A DNA stretch of 62,902 nt, the filler included, from Globobulimina sp. (lineage: Eukaryota): NCBI GenBank assembly GCA_003354225.1. It is 38 parts of 38 records of this genome, joined end to end, with 100 filler letters (N's around TTAATTAATTAA, not from the genome) between each part and the next. Parts side by side here need not be neighbours in the genome. Positions count along the whole stretch, not along the records: positions 46,433 to 47,989 come from PIVH01014853.1; 37 more parts are not named here. One strand, 5' to 3'. Both the position numbers and the translations under genes were made by a program. The stretch's first letter is position 1; each line of letters begins with the position of its first letter. The notes beneath the pieces are model-generated. The model searched no databases and was not told the DNA's origin. It saw nothing but the letters and a program-made list of their open reading frames with translations. This document shows positions 2,432 through 57,931 of this stretch, piece by piece.

Positions 2432-2802
2432 TCACTTATTTACAACAGAATTTTGCTGTCGCTGCATTTTTTTAATTGCGTGAGTAAAATTTAGCCAATG
2501 ATTGGATAGTATTAACTGCCTAATTTCCCCTGCCACGGTATCAAATAACATCGAATCAATAACAAACTCATCAGAATTTGCATCATGTTTCCTTTGACAG
2601 CATCGTAATCGCGACCAAAACTCAGATATTGCAGTATACGACACATTGACCGGAAACTCACTGTTTGTTGAAAATGATATCTTAGCAATTTCGTTTGCTT
2701 TGTCTAATTTCTCAATATGATGTTGCGAGAATATATCCTTATATTCTTCATATAATTGCAAAAAAATAACGATTTCGCAACAATACATTGCCTCTAGATA
2801 TC
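2432..2802 (-). CDS. Eukaryotic RGS-domain-like protein, C-terminal fragment
   Basis: YLEAMYCCEIVIFL, SEFPVNVSY and LFDTVAGEIRQLILSNHWLNF resemble RGS helices. The 5' end is replaced by bacterial sequence. Confidence 0.5.
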
Positions 2803-2804
2803 GA

Positions 2805-3218
2805 TCAGGGTGAATTGTAATAGGATTCAGTGAAGGAAAAGTCACAGATCAGGGGGGAGTGATCGGATAGTTGCACATCTGGGATTGTAAAATTTTGTAC
2901 CAGAAGCTCTTTACTGTGAAGGATGAAGTCCAGTGGCCTATGTGGCGCATGGCTGTGGTGGGACGGGCTGTTATCAGGGTTTGCATTTTTCATGTTGGTA
3001 GCGGCTAGAAAAAGTTCAAGCTCTGTGGAGCCCCAGAAAGTGTTGAAATCCCCTCCGATTATCACAGGTTTGTCGGTCTCTTTGACTAGTTGGTGGAGAT
3101 ATTGCAACTGATGCTGACGATGTCGGAATTTTAATGAGAGGTGGACGATGAAAAAAACCACTGATTCAAACTCAGCCTGAATGATAAGACGCTTGATGCC
3201 TTCTTTGAAATAGTGGTA
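2805..3218 (-). CDS. Bacterial endonuclease/exonuclease/phosphatase (EEP) family protein (5' partial)
   Basis: VHLSL, PVIIGGDFN, LDFIL and SDHSPL motifs; higher GC than the rest of the contig. Confidence 0.9.
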   Translation of the reverse strand, partial: YHYFKEGIKRLIIQAEFESVVFFIVHLSLKFRHRQHQLQYLHQLVKETDKPVIIGGDFNTFWGSTELELFLAATNMKNANPDNSPSHHSHAPHRPLDFILHSKELLVQNFTIPDVQLSDHSPLICDFSFTESYYNSP

Positions 3219-9954: not shown

Positions 9955-11486
9955 GTTATTGTTATTGCAGATATGGCAAAACAATAACCAAATGACTCAG
10001 ATGATGATGATATTGTCATTGCAGATATGATTGCACCAACCCCAGGCAACGCAGATAATGCCAACATAACCACCATCCCTCCATCCAACGCAGATTCTGA
10101 CACACAACCCGATGATGACCCGTACCTTAAATATTCAGCAGTTGACACGGCGCTGAAGTACGCAAACACAAATTCCGCGCCGGGATATGACGGAATCAAA
10201 TCAATCCATCTTAAACTGAACAATGACACTCTTTTTAATGTCTGGAACGATACTTATGTCATCCCATTCTACTGTCGGTTAGGATCCATCATCGCCATTC
10301 TAAAACAGCCTGATGGTGATCACAAATTTAATATCCCCATCAATCTTTGCAAAATAATCAAATCAATCTATAACAATTCACACTCAGCCATACTAAATAT
10401 CCCATTCATCACTCAATTATTTAAACTGCATAACGGTGTGTTACAGGGTTCGGTGCTAAGCCCCATCCTCTTTGCTGCTTTCATAAATGATATGATTGAC
10501 GAATTACAGGATTCGAACAAAGGCGCCAACTCTCCAGACCCTCACGAACAAATAGCCTGCATCTTCTATGCAGATGATGTCATATTATTGGCCAATACGG
10601 TCGAAAATCTCCAATTCCTTCTCAAAATTTGTGAGAAGCACAGCAAAATATGGGCGTATATGTTTAATGCCAAAAAATGCAAAACCATCATTTATAATGA
10701 CCCCAATCTCCTTTATAACAACACAAATCATTATAACACTGATCAAAAAAAACAAATCAATAATGAATATTACACCAAAATCAATTATAATAACTACTTA
10801 CCTGCACCAATGGTCCTATTACAACAATCCAAAAACAAACAGACATTGGCAGTTGACATCAACGGCCATATACGCAGTTACTACAATGCTGACATCCCTG
10901 AACAGCATCGCCAACTCTTCAAAGAACACTGTGAATACTACAGAAACAATATCAGCAATAAACCATTTCATATAATATGGGATAACATCATATTCGATCC
11001 GACCTGGGCCCCGGGATCCCTTCGCCCATAGAAAGATGGACTGTGTTGAAATTATCTTTCTATTGGAAACTAATACACAACAAACCAATATCATACATGC
11101 ATAAATGGTGTACCCTCCCCAATATAGCCACATACACACTTTATAAACAATACATTGATCTAAAAAATAAATGGCTGCCAATTGAACAGCAACTCAATGA
11201 AGACAACATCATAACATCTGATCCTTTCAATGAGGCATTAAATCCAACTGAATTGCGTCCATCTATTGTCCTAAAACAACACAAAGGCATTGTCCACTCC
11301 TTCAACAACTACCATCCATTAAGAATCCTCAAACACCATCTATCCGATTATAAAGCTATGAACACGTACGAGGTCCCTGACTTAGATGATTATGTTAAGG
11401 GTATTGATACGCCGAATTTCTCGTCTTTTTCCATTATTGTGTCCATAATATTTGATGTTTTTGTTTCGAGATCTTGTCCTAATTAA
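9955..11486 (+). mobile_element. Degenerate non-LTR retrotransposon reverse transcriptase
   Basis: APGYDGI, GVLQGSVLSP, YADD and FNAKKCK motifs. Part of RT domains 2-3 appears deleted, and the ORF is broken at about 11031. Confidence 0.85.
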
Positions 11487-13272: not shown

Positions 13273-14831
13273 TGCACAGCTAACACCACTTAACAAAGGT
13301 GACATTTATACAGTAATTTCACATTGTTTAGATGGCAGTCTTGGACATGCAGCCAGATTCACGGCTATGCAAACAATGACATATTTTCCAAATGTTTATG
13401 ACAAAGAGATTTGCGCAGTGGAGAAAGAACGTGTTATGCGCATTACAATCGGTAATTGGTCATCAACCACCACCAGAGATAACCAATGTCATCAACCGAG
13501 AAACACACAGAATGGAGGAAGTCATTTATATGATACAAATCGATCAAGAAATCCACCTGAGGTTGGTTATACATGTCATACATGTCATAAAGCAGGTCAT
13601 TGGCGTTCAGAATGCCCAGAAGAACAATTGGACGAAGAACAACAACCATTAGAGAGACAGTCAGCCTGGTCAACTTCATATGTGGGACTGACAGAAGCTA
13701 AAAAGAAAGTTACAATAACAAAGAAAGAAATTGCTAACATCGAATGGGAACTTGTAAGTTGCAATGGTATTATAGGTGAAGGACCAACAAATTACCTTGA
13801 TTATTTGCATCAATTTGCCATGGCCACAGGACGTGCATATCCGATTGAAAATTGGGATAATTTGCCAACAGCCAAACCGAACTTGGTCCCCAATTCGAAT
13901 TATCCAGACTTGAAACTCGATAATGAGAACTGGATTTACTGGAGCGAGATAGGACGACAAGAGGACGAAAGGTATGCAGTAAATAAAAATAGAATTGTAA
14001 TAAGAGAGACTAAGATACAAATAGATAAATACAATGTAGAGATGGCGAGACTCAAGAATGAGGCTACGGGAACATCAACAGTAGAATTAGAATTTTCTAG
14101 TCGTTCAGTAGAGTCTAATGGTAACAAGAAGACTTACAAGTTTGCTTCTTCAGGGCCAGGAGTATGTACAGCCCGGTCGAATCGGTTGAATGAAAATACA
14201 CTAAATGCAACTGTGTTGACAGCATTGCCTGAGGGCGAAATTGATTCTGATTCCGTTATTGTGTTACAACCCATGGAATTAGCACTTTATGTACTCCGGC
14301 AGCGTGTCCCAGTATGCAAATTAGCCGCATTAGCCGACACTGGCTCTAGACTTACTATCGCACAAAAATCAGTTTGCCAAATTGCTCGCATTCCTATGTC
14401 CGAATTGCGTAGTTCCCATCACAAACAAATTGTTGGTCTTGGGGGTTCGATTGATATTTTGGGCAAAGTTGTAATGACTTTTTCTATTGGTGATATGGTA
14501 GTAGAACAAATAGTACATGTTATACCCGACGACCCTCGTGTGCCACTGGTCATATTGGGCATAGACTTTTTCCAACGTCATAAAGTCGGATTCGATTTTG
14601 CGGAATCAACTATGGCATTGTACGGGCAAAAGCATCCACTGGGACGATACAGAGTTAAAGGTACAGCAGTTAGTTATGCAGCTGCATGGCCAGAGATGCC
14701 AGGACTTCAACAAGATGAACAAGACAGTGAAGAAGAGTCCGATCGAATGTCATCACAGGACTTGCACAGCATCAACCAGATAAAGAAAAATGCTTTAAAA
14801 ATAAGCGATCAAAGAAAGAAACAAAAACAGC
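13273..14831 (+). mobile_element. LTR retrotransposon (Ty3/gypsy-like) gag-protease region
   Basis: Zinc knuckle CHTCHKAGHWRSEC; aspartic protease ALADTGS...ILGIDF. Confidence 0.8.
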
Positions 14832-14931
14832 NNNNNNNNNNNNNNNNNNNNNNNNNNNNNNNNNNNNNNNNNNNNTTAATTAATTAANNNNNNNNNNNNN
14901 NNNNNNNNNNNNNNNNNNNNNNNNNNNNNNN

Positions 14932-16490: not shown

Positions 16491-16648
16491 NNNNNNNNNN
16501 NNNNNNNNNNNNNNNNNNNNNNNNNNNNNNNNNNTTAATTAATTAANNNNNNNNNNNNNNNNNNNNNNNNNNNNNNNNNNNNNNNNNNNNCCCACCCCCC
16601 TACCACGAGAGCACCTATGCCCCCTATGGTATTATGCTATGAGGTTTA

Positions 16649-16734
16649 ACTTGATAGTAGTCTACTGACGAGGTCCCCTATCAAGTGTATTTAATTGTGA
16701 ATTGGGTCTAGTACTATAATGGACCGAAACCTAA
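16649..16734 (+). ncRNA. Non-circularly permuted hammerhead ribozyme, copy 1; predicted cleavage after C16708
   Basis: Core CTGACGA 16665-71 and GAAA 16726-29. Stem II GGTCC/GGACC. Stem III TTGGGT/ACCTAA. Stem I TAGTCTA/TAG(T)ACTA. Extra helix ACTTGATAG/CTATCAAGT. GUC triplet. Confidence 0.85.
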
Positions 16735-17169
16735 CCATATATTTATAATGTTATTTTTCTACATGTATGTATTTATTTATATTTATTTTTATTATTGCCT
16801 ATTGGAATAGTTTTGCTATGTTTTTATTATTACTATATTATTTATAGATTATATAATATAGATTTTGAATAGTTTATTAAAACTTTTAGTATGTTTTGTT
16901 AATGCATTATCATTTCGACAAGGCAAATATTGTATAGTTTCCAACTTTTTTGTACAAATTTCAGCATAAAATCTTATTCCCAGAATTAATTCTCTTTTTC
17001 CAAAAAACAATTCACTAAATATTTTCCACTTCTTGTGACCCCGAGTCCCGACCTTCGGAGGGGCCACTGTTGTCGTCACCACTGTCCCGTGTTTTTCTTT
17101 CTTTCTTCCTCTGTGCAGGCCATAGCTAGTTATAATTATCTACTGAGCCGATTTACTAAAAGTACTTTT

Positions 17170-19807: not shown

Positions 19808-20096
19808 NNNNNNNNNNNNNNNNNNNNNNNNNNNNNNNNNNNNNNNNNNNNTTAATTAATTAANNNNNNNNNNNNNNNNNNNNNNNNNNNNNNNNNNNNN
19901 NNNNNNNTCGTTTGTTCATGTTCGATTGCAATTTGCAACCAAGATGTAAACCCTCAATACAGAAAGGGAGCACAGTCTATAAAGCAATAAAACTTTTAGT
20001 CAAATTTGTCATCACTGAACATATCGTCATCTCTGGCACACAATTCGTTTGTGTAACATCCAACAAATATTAAACAGAAACAGGAATAAAAACAGA

Positions 20097-21465
20097 ATGT
20101 CAGTCGTAGGCTTTGATCTAGGCACTGATTACTCAAAGATAGCAGTAGCATACAAGAAAAAAATCCAAGTCGTCCCCAACGAAATAACCAAATTAATAAC
20201 TCCATCCTTAACCGCATTTTCGCCAAAAGAGCGATCATTCGGCGATGTCGCAAAAACACAATGGGGCCGAAACTATAAAAATACAATCTCGCAAATGAAG
20301 AGATGGTTGGGCCGTAACGCAAACGATCCCAAATTGCAGCAAGAAGCCTCCTTTTGGTTACCCGGCATCACCACCGGCACCCTCGCCGACGGCCGATTTG
20401 GTATAAACGTCGACACTTCGCAGGGACAGTTATGCTTAGCACCCGAACAAATCTTATGCGGCTTACTGGGCCAATTGAAAAAAGTTAAGTGCACCGCTTG
20501 CGATTTTGCGAATTGCCATCCATACTCAAACCCATTTGATTTGCTTACACATAGTTTACGAGCACGTTTTTAAACGGCCTGAAAATCACCGACTGCGTCA
20601 TCGCCTGTCCCACCTTCTACGACGATGCACAGCGAAGAGCCTTATTAAACGCCGCAAAATTGGCCGAGTTAAAGGTATTGCGCCTATTGGAGGAGTCCAC
20701 CGCCATCGCTCTCAATTACGGCATCTTGCGCAATTTGCCTGAAAACGAAACGCAACGCGTCATCTTCGTCGACATCGGCTACGCCTCCACGCAGGTGGCC
20801 ATTGTGGATTTTGTGCGCGGCAAACTGTCGGTACGCTACAAGGCCTCCAACCCCTTCGTAGGTGGCCGCGACTTCGACAACGCGCTCTACCAAGTTTTCA
20901 GGAAGACATGGCAACAAAAACACAACACCGACGTGGACACTTTGCCCAAACAGAAATTGAAATTATTGCGCGCCTGCACCGCCATCAAGAAGTTGCTGAC
21001 CGGCAACCGCGACGCGCATTGGGTGCTCGACTGCTTCCACGACGTTAAGTACTGTACTGTGGCGGGCGAGGCCTGCACACAAATTCCGGAAAATTCTCAC
21101 CGAAAACGCTTGCTTTTGCATGTACTGTACATAGGATCACGACTTTCCATTAGAAATCCATCGGCACGAAATGGAGGAATCTGCCACCAAACTGGGCCTC
21201 TATGCGGCTATGTTGCAGCCTTTAATCGAGGCGCTCGACGCCACCAAAGCCGACAAGATCAAGATCCATTCGTGCGAGATCGTGGGCGGCCCCTCGCGCA
21301 TCATCTCCATCCAGACGGCAATGCTCGCTTTGGTGCAAAAGTACGAGCCAGACATCAAGAACTTGTCCACCACGCTCAACGGCGACGAGTGCGTGGCGAG
21401 AGGCTGTGCCTTAATGTGTGCGATGCTGTCGCCTAATTTCCGTGTCCGCGAGTTCCAAGTCCAAG
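20097..21465 (+). CDS. Hsp110/SSE-type Hsp70 family chaperone (3' partial); introns 20484-20554 and 21044-21134
   Basis: MSVVGFDLG, DCVIACPTFYDDAQRR, ALNYGI, GGRDFD and TTLNGDECVARGCAL..AMLSP. Both GT-AG introns restore the frame. Confidence 0.92.
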
Positions 21466-21767
21466 NNNNNNNNNNNNNNNNNNNNNNNNNNNNNNNNNNN
21501 NNNNNNNNNTTAATTAATTAANNNNNNNNNNNNNNNNNNNNNNNNNNNNNNNNNNNNNNNNNNNNTCAGTGGTGTTATTGATGTTGAAATTCCAATTCAA
21601 TTTATTCTAATTATAATACAAACATATTTTCTATTTCTAATATTAAATATTCGTCATTTGAGACTTATGTCCTTAAAACAATGTTTGTATAAACTTACGT
21701 TTGAACAAATTCTTAAAAACGTAGATTATATTATTCAAATAAGCTGAAACCTTTTCATCTATAAAAC

Positions 21768-22660
21768 ATGTCGACCACCCAACGTTTATCAGCCAGCAAA
21801 TTAAAAGAATTGGAAGCAAAGTTTGCTTCCATTTTGATTGTATCTTCTCTACTCTCAAAACGTGGAATAGCATCAACTATTTCAAATCTTAACAAACAAG
21901 TTTCTAAAATGTGTAATAATAAAGAATTGACTTTGACGGATTTACAAAGCATTCATAATATCATACCATCTCTTTGCTGGATTAAACCGGTTATACCAAC
22001 GGATGAAATACAAATTATTTATGATAATAACAACACAGCTGATGACAATAACGATTGCTATCAACTTACATTTTCTTTTCCAATCACACCCAATAATATT
22101 GGCATGTTACTGAATAAATTTAAAAAGGCAATCTCAAGCAAAAAGAGAAAATTCTCCCAAAATAACGAGAATTCCAACAAACATAAAAAAAAACGCAAAT
22201 TGAATGACGATATCGATATTGAATTGAATTTAAAAGCATTGCCTCCCAAAGATATCTCAAAAGCATCCAAGAAATTAAAACAAGTCAACTTTAATCCATT
22301 AACCTTCATCCAACAAAGCAAGAATTTTATATTTTGGTCTGATGGGAATATCGTATCACATAAATTATTACCATCAAAATTACCAAAATATGACACCTTA
22401 CAACTTACAAAAAACAACAACAACAACAACAATGCGCCAACACCCATTCGTATCACACAAATTCCATCCATTTTAATCTCAACTTATAACAGAAAGAAAA
22501 ACATTGACATTTTAAATAAATTATACTCGCATCAAAGCAGTGCAATTTCTTCCATTTGTAAGGGATATCACAACATCATAGCAACATCAACTGATAGTGG
22601 GAAGTCATTAATTTATAACGTTTGCGTGTTATCCTACATTTTGAACAATATAAAAACTAG
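21768..22660 (+). CDS. Hrq1/MrfA-like DEAH helicase, N-terminal part (truncated by chimeric junction)
   Basis: KLYSHQSSAI..IIATSTDSGKSLIY (Q motif and motif I). Confidence 0.7.
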
Positions 22661-22661
22661 C

Positions 22662-23123
22662 TCTTTCTTTAGGCTCTTAACGTTTCCTATTAAAGGGTGG
22701 TTCTACCTAGGCTCCCTTCGCTCCACGGACGTTACTCCGCTTCATCACTACTATGGGCCATCTGACTCCCTGCCTTAAAACCTTCTCAGGTTCCTCGCTT
22801 TTATACTTGTCACCTGATACTTCATCCTTGAAGAGCCGGCAGGGTCTCCCACGTTCATCTAATTACTTTAGTTGCATGCCATGCTCTCTGACTCCGGAGA
22901 TGCCTATCTCTTCTTCCCTGTATCGTTAAGATAGATATTGTCTTCGCATATGTTCCGAACATCTCGACCATCTCTCATAATCCCCATAACGGAGCTCTAT
23001 CACTTCAGCCTTCCGGCTTACGGCCTACAACCTCCCTGTCTACGCTTAGCCATAACTGTTACCAGTTACCACTCAAGACTCGGTAGTAATGTATTGGGTC
23101 TATACTTTTTACATGGATCTATC
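22662..23123 (-). mobile_element. Bacterial-type group II intron, 5' RNA domains I-III (partial)
   Basis: Minus strand has CCGAG..GGTAAC..AAGCGTAGACAG, GAACGTGGGAGACCC and GGAGTCAGATGGCCCATAGTAGTGATGAAGCGGAGTAACGTCCGTGGAGCGAAGGGAGCC, typical of DI to DIII. Confidence 0.85.
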
Positions 23124-23356
23124 NNNNNNNNNNNNNNNNNNNNNNNNNNNNNNNNNNNNNNNNNNNNTTAATTAATTAANNNNNNNNNNNNNNNNNNNNN
23201 NNNNNNNNNNNNNNNNNNNNNNNTATTTGTCCATGGCACTTATATTTGCTCGCCATAGCCTCATAATGGCCCCATCTATGCCACGTTATAAAGTAGAATG
23301 ACAAAAAAACACTGAAGATGATGATGATGAATTTCTCTTCGTTATATATTTAGATT

Positions 23357-24745
23357 GTGGTTAAATTCGATATTAGTAGTTATGGATACATCGGCAGTCC
23401 AGATTATTGTCAATTAATATACACAATTAACGCTGGCATTTCATGGACACCATTTGGCCCTCAATATACATCAGATACGTCTGATACACTCACTTTAACG
23501 CCTCCAAAAGTTGAAGATTCAGATTATTTTGGTTTTGGTTGGCAGAATTTTGCTTCAACTGAATCTAAATTATGTTTTGTAAGCAATGTGATACTTTTAG
23601 GAACATCACCAAATACAAACAATCCAACAACTGAACCAACCAAAGCGCCCAGCCATTATCCAACACAAAATCCATCACAATCGCCTACAATAAATACAAA
23701 AACAGTTAAACATTATATATATATTATAAATTGTTTGAAAAACGCTCTCCGATAATTTAAATTAAAGCCATCTGTTCATCCAACATTACTCCCAACAAAC
23801 AATCCAATAATTACCAGCAATCCAACAAATAATCCATCAATAAACCCGTCAAATAATCCATCAATTATCCCAACAAATAATCCAACAATTAATCCTTCAA
23901 TGCATCCAACCAATAATCCATCAAATAATCCTTCCATGGATCCAACAGACCATCCAACAAATACTGCAAACGTAGACACTACATTTACATCAACGCCCAT
24001 TGTATCTACAACTCCTTTTATTGAAGTAAATGGGAAAGAAAATATGAGTGGTAAAGGATTACAGATGTCATGGCATAATTATATACCAGCAATTGGAGTA
24101 GGTTTATTTTTTGTATTAATGTGTTTTTTAGGCATTTATCACTCCAACAAACATGATTACCATTTTTTGGCATCAAATGTGATTTGGTTTGGCTATCATT
24201 CATTGGATTTTTTAACCGATTTATTGTTTATTTTGTTTTTATTCTATGACGGAGAAACTGGTTTGTTTGCCATTGCATTGATATTTGTGGTCATATCATC
24301 GGTGGTAAGTGTGATTCAGTTAAATCTCAATATGAAAGTATGGATTGCTGATTCTGCAGATAATACTGAATGGTTGCAAGAATATGCAACATTTCTATAT
24401 GCAATTTGTTTTATTTGTGGATGTCAACCAGCGATGCATTTATGCACTTCAAATTTTATGAATTTAAGAGCTTTTAGGTTGAGTTTGAGCAAATATCACC
24501 AAACAAAATTGTATAATGCACATTTATGGAGCATGGTTGTTTGTGAAAATATTCCCCAGTTGGCATTGGAGATAATTTATATCGCGGTTGTAAATAAAGG
24601 GAAAGTGAATGATATTACACTGTTGGCAATGATATTTAGTGGATGTTCTATATTGATGGCGCCATGCATTTATCTCACTCGCCGTCAATTGATGATTCAA
24701 CATAAAATCATTGAAAGCCAAAAGCATTATGTTGAATTGCAATGA
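23357..24745 (+). CDS. Membrane protein with PTxxPS mucin-like repeats and multi-TM C-terminus (probably 5' partial); intron 23705-23767
   Basis: A GTTAAA...TAAAG 63-nt intron with an in-frame stop joins the ORFs. LDFLTD and ENIPQL motifs resemble XK-related TM domains. Confidence 0.7.
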
Positions 24746-25114
24746 TAATGACACAATTGTTCAATAAATGTAAAATAAAATNNNNNNNNNNNNNNNNNNN
24801 NNNNNNNNNNNNNNNNNNNNNNNNNTTAATTAATTAANNNNNNNNNNNNNNNNNNNNNNNNNNNNNNNNNNNNNNNNNNNNCAGAGACAAAAGTTAATCC
24901 CGACTCACCTCGAAGCAATCCAGTTTGGTAACGACAAAAAATCAATCAAAAGTAAATCAGTTAGAAACATAATAATGGCTGATCGTCCAAAAATATACCG
25001 TCGCAATTATATAGAATGATAATATATTTTTTTGTGGTGCCAGTACAACTGATTCTGATTCACTTTCCATTGATTTTTTGTTACATATTTTTGTAAATAT
25101 ATAAACAGATAATT

Positions 25115-28945: not shown

Positions 28946-29015
28946 AAAAAATTTTTTTCTTTTGCAGTCATTTATATACTTATAAATTTACAAACAATAA
29001 TACTTGTTCTTCATC

Positions 29016-29755
29016 ATGGCTCCAACTGCTGCTTCTTTGAAATCGGCTCGTACCAGAACAAGAAATGCTTTTGCCAAAACTTTTAAGTTAGTTAGTCCAC
29101 TTCTTCAAGATAAGTCAACAACTGAGGATCTCTCTTGTGATGAATTAGGTAGTCAACTTGACAAGTTTAGTGTTCTTCAAGCTACATTTAAACAAACTTT
29201 GGACAAATTCGAACTTGCTCAACTTACCCTACGGGAATATTATGATGAACATCCTGATGAAATGTTCCCGGCAGATCTTCAAAAGGAAGTCGATGATGAT
29301 GATGACTCAATGCATCTCTACCACGAACGTCATTTGGAATTTATGGCCTTTACTCAAAGAATGCATTTAAAGTATAAGCATCTTTTGACAGTCCAAGAAG
29401 ATATCCAACCAAAAGAAGAAGGTGGTCAAATTCAATTAGCCGAATTAATACAACAGTTTACAACTGCTTTGAATACACGTACTCCGCCTCCAGGTGTTGC
29501 TGGTGCTGGTAATGCACAGCCAGCAGTCAGAACTCGGTTACCAAAACTCGAAATTCCCAAATTTTCTGGTGATATCATGCAATGGACTGGTTTTTGGGCT
29601 CAATTTTCTTCCGCTGTACATACTGTCACTAATATGTCAGACATTGACAAATTTAACTACTTTAAGTCACAGCTTGAAGGTGATGCAAAACGAACCATCG
29701 AAGGTCTTCCATTTACTGCAGCCAATTATCAAGTTGCTATTGATCTAGTTACCAG
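29016..29755 (+). mobile_element. BEL/Pao LTR retrotransposon gag (DUF1759), 3' partial
   Basis: RLPKLEIPKFSGDIMQWTGFWAQFSSAVH..DKFNYFKSQLEGDAKRTIEGL..NYQVA. Confidence 0.9.
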
Positions 29756-29855
29756 NNNNNNNNNNNNNNNNNNNNNNNNNNNNNNNNNNNNNNNNNNNNT
29801 TAATTAATTAANNNNNNNNNNNNNNNNNNNNNNNNNNNNNNNNNNNNNNNNNNNN

Positions 29856-46332: not shown

Positions 46333-46837
46333 NNNNNNNNNNNNNNNNNNNNNNNNNNNNNNNNNNNNNNNNNNNNTTAATTAATTAANNNNNNNNNNNN
46401 NNNNNNNNNNNNNNNNNNNNNNNNNNNNNNNNCTATTAACAATAGCACCACTACATTGGACATTTTTTTTGGTTGCGTTTCAAAATATCTTCCGGCAGAC
46501 ATCGAGAGAAGGACTAGAAACATAGGTTGTCCTGAGCGTCCGGGTATACGTCATGGGTCAAATCCAACCAATGTTGAATCACGACAAAAATTATTATGGG
46601 GCCGCTGTCAAACGACAAATCGATACATACCCCGGTTTCAAGGAAACGACATTCGGATACAGTTTTAAAGTAAGAAGTTAGGAAAAGAATAGAAACTTTT
46701 AGTAAATTAAACAAATATAATTATTAAAAGGCAGAAAAGTAATAATAGAAGGTCGGTAAATAACGCTCTTATAAATAGAAATAATTTAAATTAACGTATT
46801 TGATAGTTAAAACCAAACATAGACGATAATAGTAGGA

Positions 46838-46929
46838 AAAAATTGAGTTTCGGTCCTTATTTCTTGACCCAATTTTTACCGTATATGATTTATTGGCAGG
46901 ACCATCTTCAGAAGAAACCAATAAATCAT
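46838..46929 (-). ncRNA. Non-circularly permuted hammerhead ribozyme, copy 2; predicted cleavage after the C at 46866
   Basis: Minus strand: ATGATTTATTGG TTTCTT CTGAAGA T GGTCCT G CCAATAAATCAT ATACGGT AAAAATTGGGT C AAGAAA TA AGGACC GAAA CTCAATTTTT. All four helices pair. Confidence 0.9.
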
Positions 46930-47183
46930 TTATAAAGCCATGTACTACCTACCGTACATGAATAATAATATATAGACCACTGAATAAATAAACTAACTGT
47001 TATGCTATCAGTAGCATGTCTTTTACTAGTGGCCAATTCCTTTCTGCTTGGACCAAATCCACGTTGACCACCACGTCCACTCGGACCCCCACGTCCACCA
47101 CGTCCACTCGGACCACCCCGTCCTCTTGAACCACCGCCACCACGGAAATCCGTACCACGATTGCCTCTGCCACCACGAGCCAT
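46926..47183 (-). CDS. RGG/GR-rich ORF start, preceded by a 5' UTR intron (47189-47274); possible donor at 46997
   Basis: MARGGRGNRG...RGGRGGPSGRGG. A GTGAGT...TTTTTAG intron ends 5 nt before the ATG. Confidence 0.6.
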   Translation of the reverse strand: MARGGRGNRGTDFRGGGGSRGRGGPSGRGGRGGPSGRGGQRGFGPSRKELATSKRHATDSITVSLFIQWSIYYYSCTVGSTWLYK

Positions 47184-47467
47184 TGTTCCTAAAAAAACAG
47201 CAAAAGAGGAGCCAGCCAGAAGAGTTCAGAAAAATTAGAAAATTAAACAGATTAAAGTAGACTGAATTACTCACCGCAAGACTTTATTTTCCTGTCATTC
47301 TTTAAGCAACTGGATTTGCATAATAATCATAATTTATGCCAGTGATAACCAAATTTATTTATCAATCCAAGTCCCTAGTCCAAATAATCAGGCCATGCTG
47401 TAAATTCGCCCATGTGGCTGTGTATTCGTATAGGCAGCCAAGACGCCAGATGACGCCAAAGTGAATA

Positions 47468-47746
47468 TTAAACAACTGGTTTGCCCTGTAGAGATACACC
47501 CCAGCTATGTGTATCGGCAACATTTGCTATATGCTTATTTAGCATATAATTAGACTACTGGTTAGGCCATTAAGAGATACATTCCCAGCAAAATGTATCG
47601 GCAATGAAACGGTATCGCTAAAAATAGCGTTAATTAAACAACTGGTTATGCCATTGGTATATACACACCCAGCAATGTGTATTGGCGGTAATTAAACAGC
47701 TGGATGCTATAGGATAAAGTACACCCCCAGCTAGGTGAACCAGCAG
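47468..47746 (-). ncRNA. Four tandem ~54-nt pseudoknot RNA motifs (47692-47746, 47634-47688, 47550-47604, 47468-47520)
   Basis: Each copy: P1, P2 hairpin with loop ending GCTGGG, 7-9 nt bulge, P1', then CCAGY..TYTAA. Compensatory changes between copies. Confidence 0.8.
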
Positions 47747-47774
47747 GTACTGTGTAAAACGGTTAGGTATGTCA

Positions 47775-47989
47775 TTATTTGGTAAAGGTGCAAATAAACT
47801 TTGCAATGTTATTTTTATCCGTTAGACCATATTTAAGTAATTGCATTTTATGCTTTTCATAAAATTTAAATGAGCAAGCGATTAAATCATATCTATTAAA
47901 TCCATTAATAATCAAACTGAGAAAAATTTCTCTATTCCTGGCTATAAGATCATTAAGACGATTGCAAATCCTAAGAAATCGCAGCAACT
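47775..47989 (-). mobile_element. C-terminus (RT thumb) of a Penelope-like retroelement with C-terminal RT (Naiad/Chlamys-like)
   Basis: (Q)LLRFLRICN..D...R....L..NGF....L...FKFY..H...L.KY resembles the PLE thumb consensus (SQLxRYxRxC). The ORF stops with no downstream GIY-YIG domain. Confidence 0.7.
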
Positions 47990-56374: not shown

Positions 56375-57931
56375 GAGAAAAAATATAACGCAAATATTTG
56401 TTTACCATATCATTTCAACTAGTGTAAAAGTGTAAAAATTAGTTCTTTATTTAAATTGTTATACATTCAGGGTTGGGTTTTTCCAAATGCTCTTCAACTA
56501 GTTTTTCTTTCGAAAACTTTGTCTGAAAGAAAGAGTTACTAAATATAATTAAATAAAACACGCCCAAATAACAATTCAAGAAGTACAAAGTAAACTGTTT
56601 GCATTTTTGTCAATAGTCATATTACAATATGAAGGACATGATATGTTGGAATTATGATTTTGATGATTATTTTTCCATTCGATTTGTATGGTTGAATGAT
56701 AAATATTGAATTTCTGACTTAACATATTTTGTGCTGTCCGTAATATAGAATCAGAACAAGCAGTAATTATTGCATCATCACAATCTAATGTTGACGATTG
56801 AAGTACTAAATGAACAGACAATACTGGTCTATTTACGGATATATCCCAAATATGCAAATCATGTATTTCTGCAACATCTGTTAACTTATTTAATTCCGAT
56901 CTTATATCATTATAATTTATATGCAATGGCACTGATTCCATTAAAACTGATAATATATCACGCAATAATTTAACTGTTGTAAACATAACAATGACTGAAA
57001 ATATTAAAGTGCAAATCGGATCAAATATGCGATATCGTTTATTGTCATACCATATTAATGCCGCAGCTATCAACACACCAATGGATTGCAATAAGTCACC
57101 CAATGCATGAATAAATGCAGAACGTACATTAATATTAACATTGTCATTCTCAGTTATTGACATTTCATAATCTGAATGATCTGAATCGGAATTATGTTGT
57201 TGGTGATGGTGTTGGTGATGTTGTTGGTGTAATATCTTAGACATTACAATATTAACAAGGATACCAACACAAGCAATACCAAACATGATTTTGCCATTTA
57301 CAGTCTGTGGATGGAATATGCGATCAATCGCTTCATAAACTAACCAAACGGTTAACAACCAAATCAAGAATACACTGAAAAGTGCGCCAATAATCTCTGC
57401 TCTGTGATATCCGAATGTTAATGTATTTGTTGCTTTTTTTGAAGAAATCCAGAAAGAAATTATTGAAATCATAATTCCACCACAATCTGACAATAAATGC
57501 AATGCATCAGACATTAATGCAATAGAATGGGCCATATAGCCACCAATTAATTCAACGCACATAAATATCAAACAAAATATTAATGCAGAAAATAATTTAT
57601 TTCTGGCTTTTTGTCTCATCACAATATTTTGCTGAGTTTTCTTTTCAAAATAACAACCAAATTCACATTGATATCTTGTCACATTATCTGACTGTGATAC
57701 TGATACACATAGATCATCACTTGAACATAGAGTTGAATTATCATTTGATATCAATTGCTCATATTTTGAATTGTGTGTTGATACTGATACATCACAGTCT
57801 TGTGTTGTACTCGAGAAAAAATATAACGCAAATATTTGTTTACCATATCATTTCAACTAGTGTAAAAGTGTAAAAATTAGTTCTTTATTTAAATTGTTAT
57901 ACATTCAGGGTTGGGTTTTTCCAAATGCTCT
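56375..57931. repeat. Exact 119-bp terminal direct repeat (56375-56493 = 57813-57931): circular or tandem 1438-bp unit
   Basis: Both contig ends read GAGAAAAAATATAACGC...CCAAATGCTCT. Confidence 0.95.
56576..57754 (-). CDS. Cation diffusion facilitator zinc transporter (SLC30/ZnT2-like)
   Basis: SDALHLLSD, FGYHRAEIIGA, His-rich loop, HALGDLLQS and HDLHIW. Confidence 0.95.
   Translation of the reverse strand: MISNDNSTLCSSDDLCVSVSQSDNVTRYQCEFGCYFEKKTQQNIVMRQKARNKLFSALIFCLIFMCVELIGGYMAHSIALMSDALHLLSDCGGIMISIISFWISSKKATNTLTFGYHRAEIIGALFSVFLIWLLTVWLVYEAIDRIFHPQTVNGKIMFGIACVGILVNIVMSKILHQQHHQHHHQQHNSDSDHSDYEMSITENDNVNINVRSAFIHALGDLLQSIGVLIAAALIWYDNKRYRIFDPICTLIFSVIVMFTTVKLLRDILSVLMESVPLHINYNDIRSELNKLTDVAEIHDLHIWDISVNRPVLSVHLVLQSSTLDCDDAIITACSDSILRTAQNMLSQKFNIYHSTIQIEWKNNHQNHNSNISCPSYCNMTIDKNANSLLCTS

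Follow-up and report, generated by a model that had tools for sequence, protein, structure and literature searches.

Probable type-CSG, non-circularly permuted hammerhead ribozymes in Globobulimina sp. DNA that carries eukaryotic genes

The window analyzed here, that is, the whole stretch of 62,902 nucleotides (nt), filler included, joined from 38 records of the Globobulimina sp. assembly GCA_003354225.1, contains two short elements in which all the parts of a hammerhead ribozyme are present in an unusual order. One of these elements, copy 2, spans 92 nt on the minus strand of the part derived from PIVH01014853.1 and lies between two open reading frames (ORFs), all on the same strand. Its label in the initial annotation implied that there was a first copy; this copy 1 was found on the plus strand, with a minus-strand ORF on either side, and is close to where a 423-codon membrane/coiled-coil ORF has its upstream end. 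We consider both elements as candidate hammerheads of type CSG, a non-circular permutation of the conventional fold. The parts of copy 2, as read from its sequence and coordinates, are the following:

46838-46929, minus strand: copy 2, a complete candidate type-CSG hammerhead, 92 nt
46918-46929, minus strand: helix X, 5' arm, 12 nt, with no gap to strand b of stem I
46912-46917, minus strand: stem I, strand b (positions 2.x)
46905-46911, minus strand: core block C, CUGAAGA (C3-A9)
46904, minus strand: extra U between A9 and G10.1, with no counterpart in copy 1 or in one of the paralogous contigs
46898-46903, minus strand: stem II, strand a (10.x), followed by one G
46885-46896, minus strand: helix X, 3' arm (X'), 1 nt past strand a of stem II
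46878-46884, minus strand: unpaired linker of 7 nt
46867-46877, minus strand: stem III, strand a, the last nt of which is U16.1
46866 and 46865, minus strand: C17 and N1.1, with the predicted scissile phosphate between them, by analogy with hammerheads
46860-46865, minus strand: stem I, strand a (1.x); 2 nt (46859-46858) then link it to strand b of stem II
46852-46857, minus strand: stem II, strand b (11.x)
46848-46851, minus strand: core block G, GAAA (G12 A13 A14 A15.1)
46838-46848, minus strand: stem III, strand b (15.x), the lower edge of the similarity in paralogous contigs

The four helices that these strands can form are helix X, with 12 pairs that are all Watson-Crick (46929-46918 / 46896-46885), stem I of 6 bp (46917-46912 / 46865-46860), stem II of 6 bp including G10.1-C11.1 (46903-46898 / 46857-46852) and stem III of 11 bp, among them A15.1-U16.1 and one G.U (46877-46867 / 46848-46838). 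Stems I and II cross each other and cannot be nested. All the parts of copy 2 that had been annotated initially are present on the minus strand at the positions assigned to them, and every pair listed there forms; the cut proposed at 46866/46865 likewise agrees with the placement of C17 at 46866, the site predicted from the sequence. Cleavage at this site is predicted to yield a 5' product of 64 nt and a 3' product of 28 nt. Copy 1 contains the same set of parts:

16649-16734, plus strand: copy 1, a second candidate type-CSG hammerhead, 86 nt
16649-57 / 16678-86, plus strand: helix X, 9 bp
16658-64 / 16709-16, plus strand: stem I, 7 bp and a 1-nt bulge
16665-71, plus strand: core, CUGACGA
16672-76 / 16721-25, plus strand: stem II, 5 bp
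16702-07 / 16729-34, plus strand: stem III, 6 bp
16708, plus strand: C17, with the predicted cut at 16708/16709
16726-29, plus strand: GAAA

The two copies share their architecture down to the junctions, with no nt separating helix X from stem I and a single nt separating stem II from X', and the linkers that connect stem I to stem II measure 2 and 4 nt. The letters of the core are the same except for N7, and the sequences of stem II and of the core-proximal part of stem III are common to both copies, whereas helix X and stem I differ in sequence. Because the extra U of copy 2 caused MAFFT to shift the core by one column, pairs were compared by coordinates, counting outward from the core, and no covariance model was employed. 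Among the 26 comparable pairs, 17 are identical, seven are changed on both sides with the pairing kept (four in helix X and three in stem I) and two are G.U/G-C switches in stem III; none is broken. Outside of the elements, the flanks of the two copies show no similarity above noise. Compensated changes combined with unlike flanks are, as far as this one pair of sequences indicates, a signature of selection on the predicted fold.

The frequency of such elements was assessed with a type-CSG descriptor that combined CUGANGA, GAAA, UH, contiguous core-adjoining stems and no more than 10 nt of linker between stems I and II, and did not demand helix X. At the strict level, which was set by the weaker copy (stem I at least 3, stem II at least 5 and stem III at least 6), the descriptor matched the window twice, at copies 1 and 2, and produced no matches in 400 dinucleotide-preserving shuffles; when relaxed to at least 4 for both stem II and stem III, it produced 4 matches in 400 shuffles. 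At either setting, there were no matches in 434 unrelated loci (3.19 Mb) that had been preselected for parts of the motif. When any block order was allowed, the only good matches in the window were again copies 1 and 2. Three any-order matches at 2511-3156 were attributed to chance (stem I of 3 bp, spans of 139-189 nt), and the segment 43698-43907 on the plus strand, which came up in the first descriptor scan (all stems at least 3), was rejected, with stems of 3/4/4 bp and an I-to-II linker of 106 nt. Degenerate-copy searches with two conserved words revealed no further copy in the window; a fixed pattern with gaps of up to 30 nt yielded no window matches, because the actual gap between blocks C and S is longer.

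The predicted folding of copy 2 agrees with this arrangement. Its minimum free energy (MFE) and centroid folds consist of exactly two hairpins, those of helix X and stem III, at -22.1 kcal/mol (z = -2.6; 2 of the 200 shuffles fold as well), and leave the strands of stem I, the core and stem II in the two hairpin loops, so that the active fold would be a loop-loop complex formed through stems I and II. Taken as isolated duplexes, helix X, stem I, stem II and stem III of copy 2 are assigned -12.6, -2.2, -8.7 and -8.4 kcal/mol, respectively. The two arms of helix X in copy 2 also came up as an inverted repeat. The X hairpin also forms in the MFE fold of copy 1 (z = -0.9).

The classification of these elements follows from the analysis of Eckert, Friedrich, Weinberg & Weinberg (NAR 2023; PMC10085705), which distinguishes six possible orders of the hammerhead blocks. 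In that scheme, types I, II and III are CGS, GSC and SCG, respectively, and the new, non-circular forms comprise SGC, CSG and, doubtfully, GCS; type CSG consists of block C (I-CUGAnGA-II), block S (III-cleavage site-I) and block G (II-GAAA-III). Both copies display the block order C-S-G, which is also what the strand order initially proposed for copy 2 (X, I, CUGAAGA, II, X', III, GUC, I', II', GAAA, III') amounts to, and the accompanying statement that the element fits none of types I, II and III holds under the definition in PMC10085705, by which C-S-G is a non-circular permutation. The core nucleotides are complete in both copies (CUGAAGA or CUGACGA, GAAA, A15.1-U16.1 and C17, where H17 is not G), and the stems abut the core within the 1-2 nt of insertion that we allowed, with 0 inserted nt in copy 1 and 1 nt (U46904) in copy 2. 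In each copy, a helix (12 bp for copy 2, 9 bp for copy 1) links stem I to stem II at their distal ends, which supports the earlier suggestion that helix X serves as a tether, and the helices covary between the two sequences as described above, with 7/26 pairs compensated and 0 broken.

That this topology might already be known had been anticipated, correctly: according to PMC10085705, type CSG was published in 2023 from two similar metagenomic sequences, both of which cleaved in vitro at the predicted site. The same source credits type CSG with "modest covariation", rates the evidence for it as weaker than that for type SGC, places it "exclusively in metagenomes" and, with the exception of the GCS candidate, names no such RNA in the genome of a known organism. 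It also notes that stem I is connected to stem II by a helix in forms SGC and CSG, reports that mutation and rescue of SGC-3 show all four helices to be needed, and gives hammerheads as the only RNA fold for which non-circular permutation is documented. A survey of full-text literature on type-CSG, type-SGC and permuted hammerheads found nothing beyond PMC10085705. The elements described here accordingly belong to a ribozyme type that has been described before but is very rare; the new aspects are the genomic, eukaryote-like host, the several diverged copies and the added covariation support.

Among the characterized systems, the closest are the published CSG-1 and CSG-2, which, as presented in PMC10085705, share with our elements the C-S-G order, the full conserved core, stems I-III and a helix by which stems I and II are linked at their distal ends, as well as a late cut, with a 5' product that is long and a 3' product that is short (48-49 and 29 nt when up to 13 flanking nt are counted, compared to 64 and 28 nt without flanks for copy 2). 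In contrast to these ribozymes, which that source describes from metagenomes only, the present elements reside in DNA with eukaryotic genes, in at least two full copies along with further paralogs, and have a longer 5' part, a helix X of 9-12 bp, a stem III of up to 11 bp and, in copy 2, one extra U after A9; the likeness described here is that of architecture. The nucleotide at the place of this extra U is reported to be conserved in the hammerheads of Penelope-like elements (PLE), and the single extra nt of copy 2 is thus within known natural variation as covered by that account (PMC4209133). Type-SGC ribozymes (the HRIMA-1 motif and its variants), as described in PMC10085705, represent a circular permutation of the same pseudoknotted topology, in which strand a of stem I is connected to strand b of stem II by a short linker, typically of 3 nt, and a fourth helix ties the other strands together; they differ in that their ends open between blocks G and C, resulting in the order S-G-C, and in that they come from metatranscriptomes and probably reside in circular RNA agents rather than in DNA. 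With the classical hammerheads of types I, II and III, our elements share the same 15-nt catalytic core and, presumably, its three-dimensional structure and chemistry. The classical ribozymes, however, form an unknotted three-way junction with a tertiary contact between loops I and II, whereas in our elements, stem I crosses stem II and each of them crosses both hairpins. Finally, the PLE hammerheads, as reported in PMC4209133, are likewise eukaryotic, multi-copy and highly variable in sequence, with compensatory changes within one genome, but those are minimal type I motifs located in the terminal repeats of the elements, beside the reverse transcriptase; in our case, the topology is permuted and no element is common to the surroundings of the copies.

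Further copies are indicated by contigs of the public sequencing run X1, which contains 68% of the sampled words of 46433-47989 and is the probable source sample of the window, hence not independent of it. Contigs were aligned to 46433-47989 at a likeness of at least 80%, and statements on individual contigs pertain to the 11 listed pieces of the 22 aligned. The summed contig depth is 38 over the ribozyme versus 8.5 on either side. One short contig matches 46838-46930 with 14 differences and then continues into sequence unlike the window, and another matches 46838-46926 with 9 differences and 3 gaps and has unlike flanks; because these contigs match the ribozyme span only, more copies must exist, and at least one additional copy is suggested by a loose end at 46918. 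The differences fit the predicted fold: variation is greatest in the 7-nt linker (46878-46884), the extra U at 46904 is missing from one contig, in one the G.U pair of stem III is replaced by A-U, and three contigs carry, at 46898 (strand a of the sixth pair of stem II), the base of copy 1. In runs X3 and X4, no contigs aligned to 46433-47989, and in run X2, no contig covered the ribozyme. None of the sequencing runs listed for this stretch is of RNA.

Taken together, these observations make it likely, to the extent that sequence can reveal it, that both elements are fold-competent type-CSG hammerhead ribozymes. In the mechanism we propose, the two hairpins, helix X and stem III, would form first, and their loops would then pair through stems I and II, bringing CUGANGA, GAAA and GUC together into a hammerhead core. 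Helix X and the I-to-II linker of 2-4 nt would replace the usual contact between loops I and II and hold the stems side by side. The 2'-OH of C17 would attack its own 3' phosphate, cutting copy 2 at 46866/46865 and copy 1 at 16708/16709 and producing a 2',3'-cyclic phosphate and a 5'-OH; catalysis and the location of the cut are expected by analogy to hammerhead chemistry and to the cleavage assays presented in PMC10085705. In copy 2, the products probably stay paired, as the topology suggests, since 6+6+11 pairs would hold on to the 28-nt 3' product; product release would then be slow and religation is conceivable.

Several observations have to be set against this assignment. In copy 2, stem I has a single G-C pair, the others being A-U, and is weak on its own (-2.2 kcal/mol), and the MFE fold of copy 1 pairs the cleavage-site strand with strand b of stem II, in competition with stem III, so that copy 1, with this competing fold and a bulged stem I, may fold poorly. 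The covariation count comes from two full sequences, that is, a single pair, and the paralogous contigs share the sample of the window and are known from summary tables. No Rfam hammerhead model reaches its gathering score on either copy: copy 1 has a sub-threshold match to Hammerhead_3 (14.6 bits, E 6.4, compared to a gathering score of 48.5), and nothing hammerhead-like was found on copy 2 at E≤10. The classical families in Rfam are Hammerhead_1, Hammerhead_II, Hammerhead_3, HH9 and HH10; of the nested three-way junction and gathering-level match that mark a classical hammerhead (clan CL00010), neither is seen here. The published type-CSG ribozymes are slow, with observed rates (kobs) of 0.004 and 0.026 per min (PMC10085705).

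No relative was found outside the source organism, either, in scans of phage records, metagenomes, viral contigs and prokaryote genomes. Searching phage records with blastn gave no match, a permissive pattern scan of metagenomes produced no credible CSG fold among at least 120 loci, and two scans of viral contigs and one of prokaryote genomes gave no credible match among 314 loci. Two weak metagenome matches were discarded (DNA of 62% GC, I-to-II linkers of 20 and 64 nt), and so was a marginal match, identical in loci L166 and L188, with a wobble-rich stem II of 4 bp and a stem III of 3 bp. In viral contig loci L124-L237, there were 31 pattern matches with a span of 47 nt, most of which (27/31 by reading of the listing) represent one coding stretch; this is a conserved phage coding sequence with variation in the third codon position and hammerhead-like words, and not a ribozyme.

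The main alternative with regard to the role of these elements is that they belong to mobile elements, for example retrozymes, PLEs or short interspersed nuclear elements (SINEs), such that the ribozyme would process the transcript of the element and the copies would mark insertions. This possibility is compatible with the ribozyme identity and differs on role alone. Several copies are present in one genome, eukaryotic hammerheads are, in the accounts of PMC4209133 and PMC13725137, often tied to retroelements, and three ORFs of retroelement type are found in the window, none of which adjoins a ribozyme copy:

10027-11031, plus strand: ORF fragment of a reverse transcriptase (RVT_1)
13367-14887, plus strand: gag-like ORF with zf-CCHC (zinc knuckle) and aspartyl protease domains
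29004-29807, plus strand: ORF with DUF1759 (Pao-type gag)

However, copies 1 and 2 have no flank similarity in common, the similarity to X1 contigs ends at the structural edges of the ribozyme and not at the cut site, and no tandem, terminal or long terminal repeat (LTR)-like repeats bracket either copy in the window; furthermore, the nearest reverse transcriptase ORF is more than 5 kb away from copy 1, with a host gene for methionine aminopeptidase between them. Neither the window nor the short contigs show the ribozyme inside a repeated element, in tandem units or terminal repeats that mostly have shared flanks, as would be typical of a retroelement-borne hammerhead, and we consider an origin of this kind unlikely.

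The assignment of both copies as functional ribozymes is also challenged by the possibility that they are decayed or never-active look-alikes, derived from a repeat that carried a ribozyme, which would currently lack a useful rate of cleavage or would be mere structured RNA or DNA. The bulged stem I and the competing fold of copy 1, the extra U after A9 and the AU-rich stem I of copy 2, and the slowness of the published type-CSG examples could all be taken in this sense. Against it, every position required for catalysis is intact in both copies, the 9 changed helix pairs all still pair, with none of 26 broken, and the variation among the paralogs is concentrated in the linker. An intact core, kept pairs and linker-focused variation make up a pattern of continued selection on the fold, and decay appears quite improbable. 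Another reading, that two AT-rich inverted repeats and short core-like words came together by chance, could draw on the 32.5% G+C of the DNA, where AU helices come cheap, and on the 32 occurrences of CUGANGA in the window; it is already effectively refuted by the two window matches against none in 400 shuffles and none in 3.19 Mb of other DNA, by the common architecture of both matches down to junction lengths, by the common sequence of stem II and proximal stem III and by the existence of further paralogs.

The DNA around these elements is, judging by the domains of the neighboring ORFs, apparently eukaryotic nuclear. The ORFs of the window contain the OSCP1, CDT1, arginine methyltransferase, Hsp70 and methionine aminopeptidase domains, as well as anoctamin, SPRY, topoisomerase-II-type ATPase, cation efflux transporter and GT8 domains; no tRNA genes were detected in the window. 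On one side of copy 2 is an 85-codon ORF with an RGG-rich start (46926-47183, minus strand), the stop codon of which lies inside arm X, and on the other side, on the same strand, is a coiled-coil ORF that runs from 46376 down to 45681. No usable protein atlas match was obtained for either of the neighboring ORFs. Copy 2 may be located in an intron, in an untranslated region or between genes; for an intron of the gene of the RGG ORF, GT/AG candidates are present, but the spliced frame stops after 14 codons. In the short ORF 46926-47225 (minus strand), the arginine-glycine-rich (RGG-type) start derives from tandem repeats of 9/18/27 nt (47050-47139). Upstream of it, 47295-47750 consists of tandem repeats of approximately 83-84 nt, with a super-period of 166 nt, and several diverged X1 contigs match 47525-47989, so that this repeat is multi-copy in the organism, too. 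Runs of 5-6 U are found at or shortly past the 3' ends of both copies (46837-46843, minus strand; 16752-16756, plus strand), and the 3' flanks in the paralogous X1 contigs are U-rich as well; in such AT-rich DNA, this may mean nothing.

Other features of the window are separate from the ribozymes. The only Rfam match at the gathering score in the entire window is to domains D1-D4 of a group II intron (RF02005; 22882-23122, minus strand; 125 bits, E 5e-35); D5/D6 gave no match at E≤0.1 within 20000-25000, and the match may represent an insertion from an organelle or an intron that has degenerated. About every 1659 nt (for example, at 16491-16590), the window contains 44 N, a 12-nt spacer with stops in all frames and another 44 N; because many ORFs end in these 12-nt spacers, the true genes are longer than the ORF table suggests. 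An exact direct duplicate of 119 nt (56375-56493 and 57813-57931), one copy of which begins just past an N block while the other ends just before the next, may be an artefact of record assembly or masking.

Our best guess is that the copies are self-contained RNA-processing modules in host transcripts. Considerably more tentative is the broader proposal that these elements are the first type-CSG hammerheads in an identifiable, eukaryotic nuclear genome, that they belong to a dispersed family in which conservation is confined to the ribozyme of approximately 90 nt, and that they either act as a reversible nick that is cleaved and religated or are the footprint of an undescribed, ribozyme-only mobile unit; a reversible nick in host transcripts, rather than a simple cutter, is conceivable because the 3' product would stay clamped by three helices (23 pairs). 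For type CSG, the window supplies a host whose genes are eukaryotic, two full, diverged copies in which seven pairs are compensated, and signs of more copies, and it illustrates that ribozymes of this kind are missed by standard Rfam scans.
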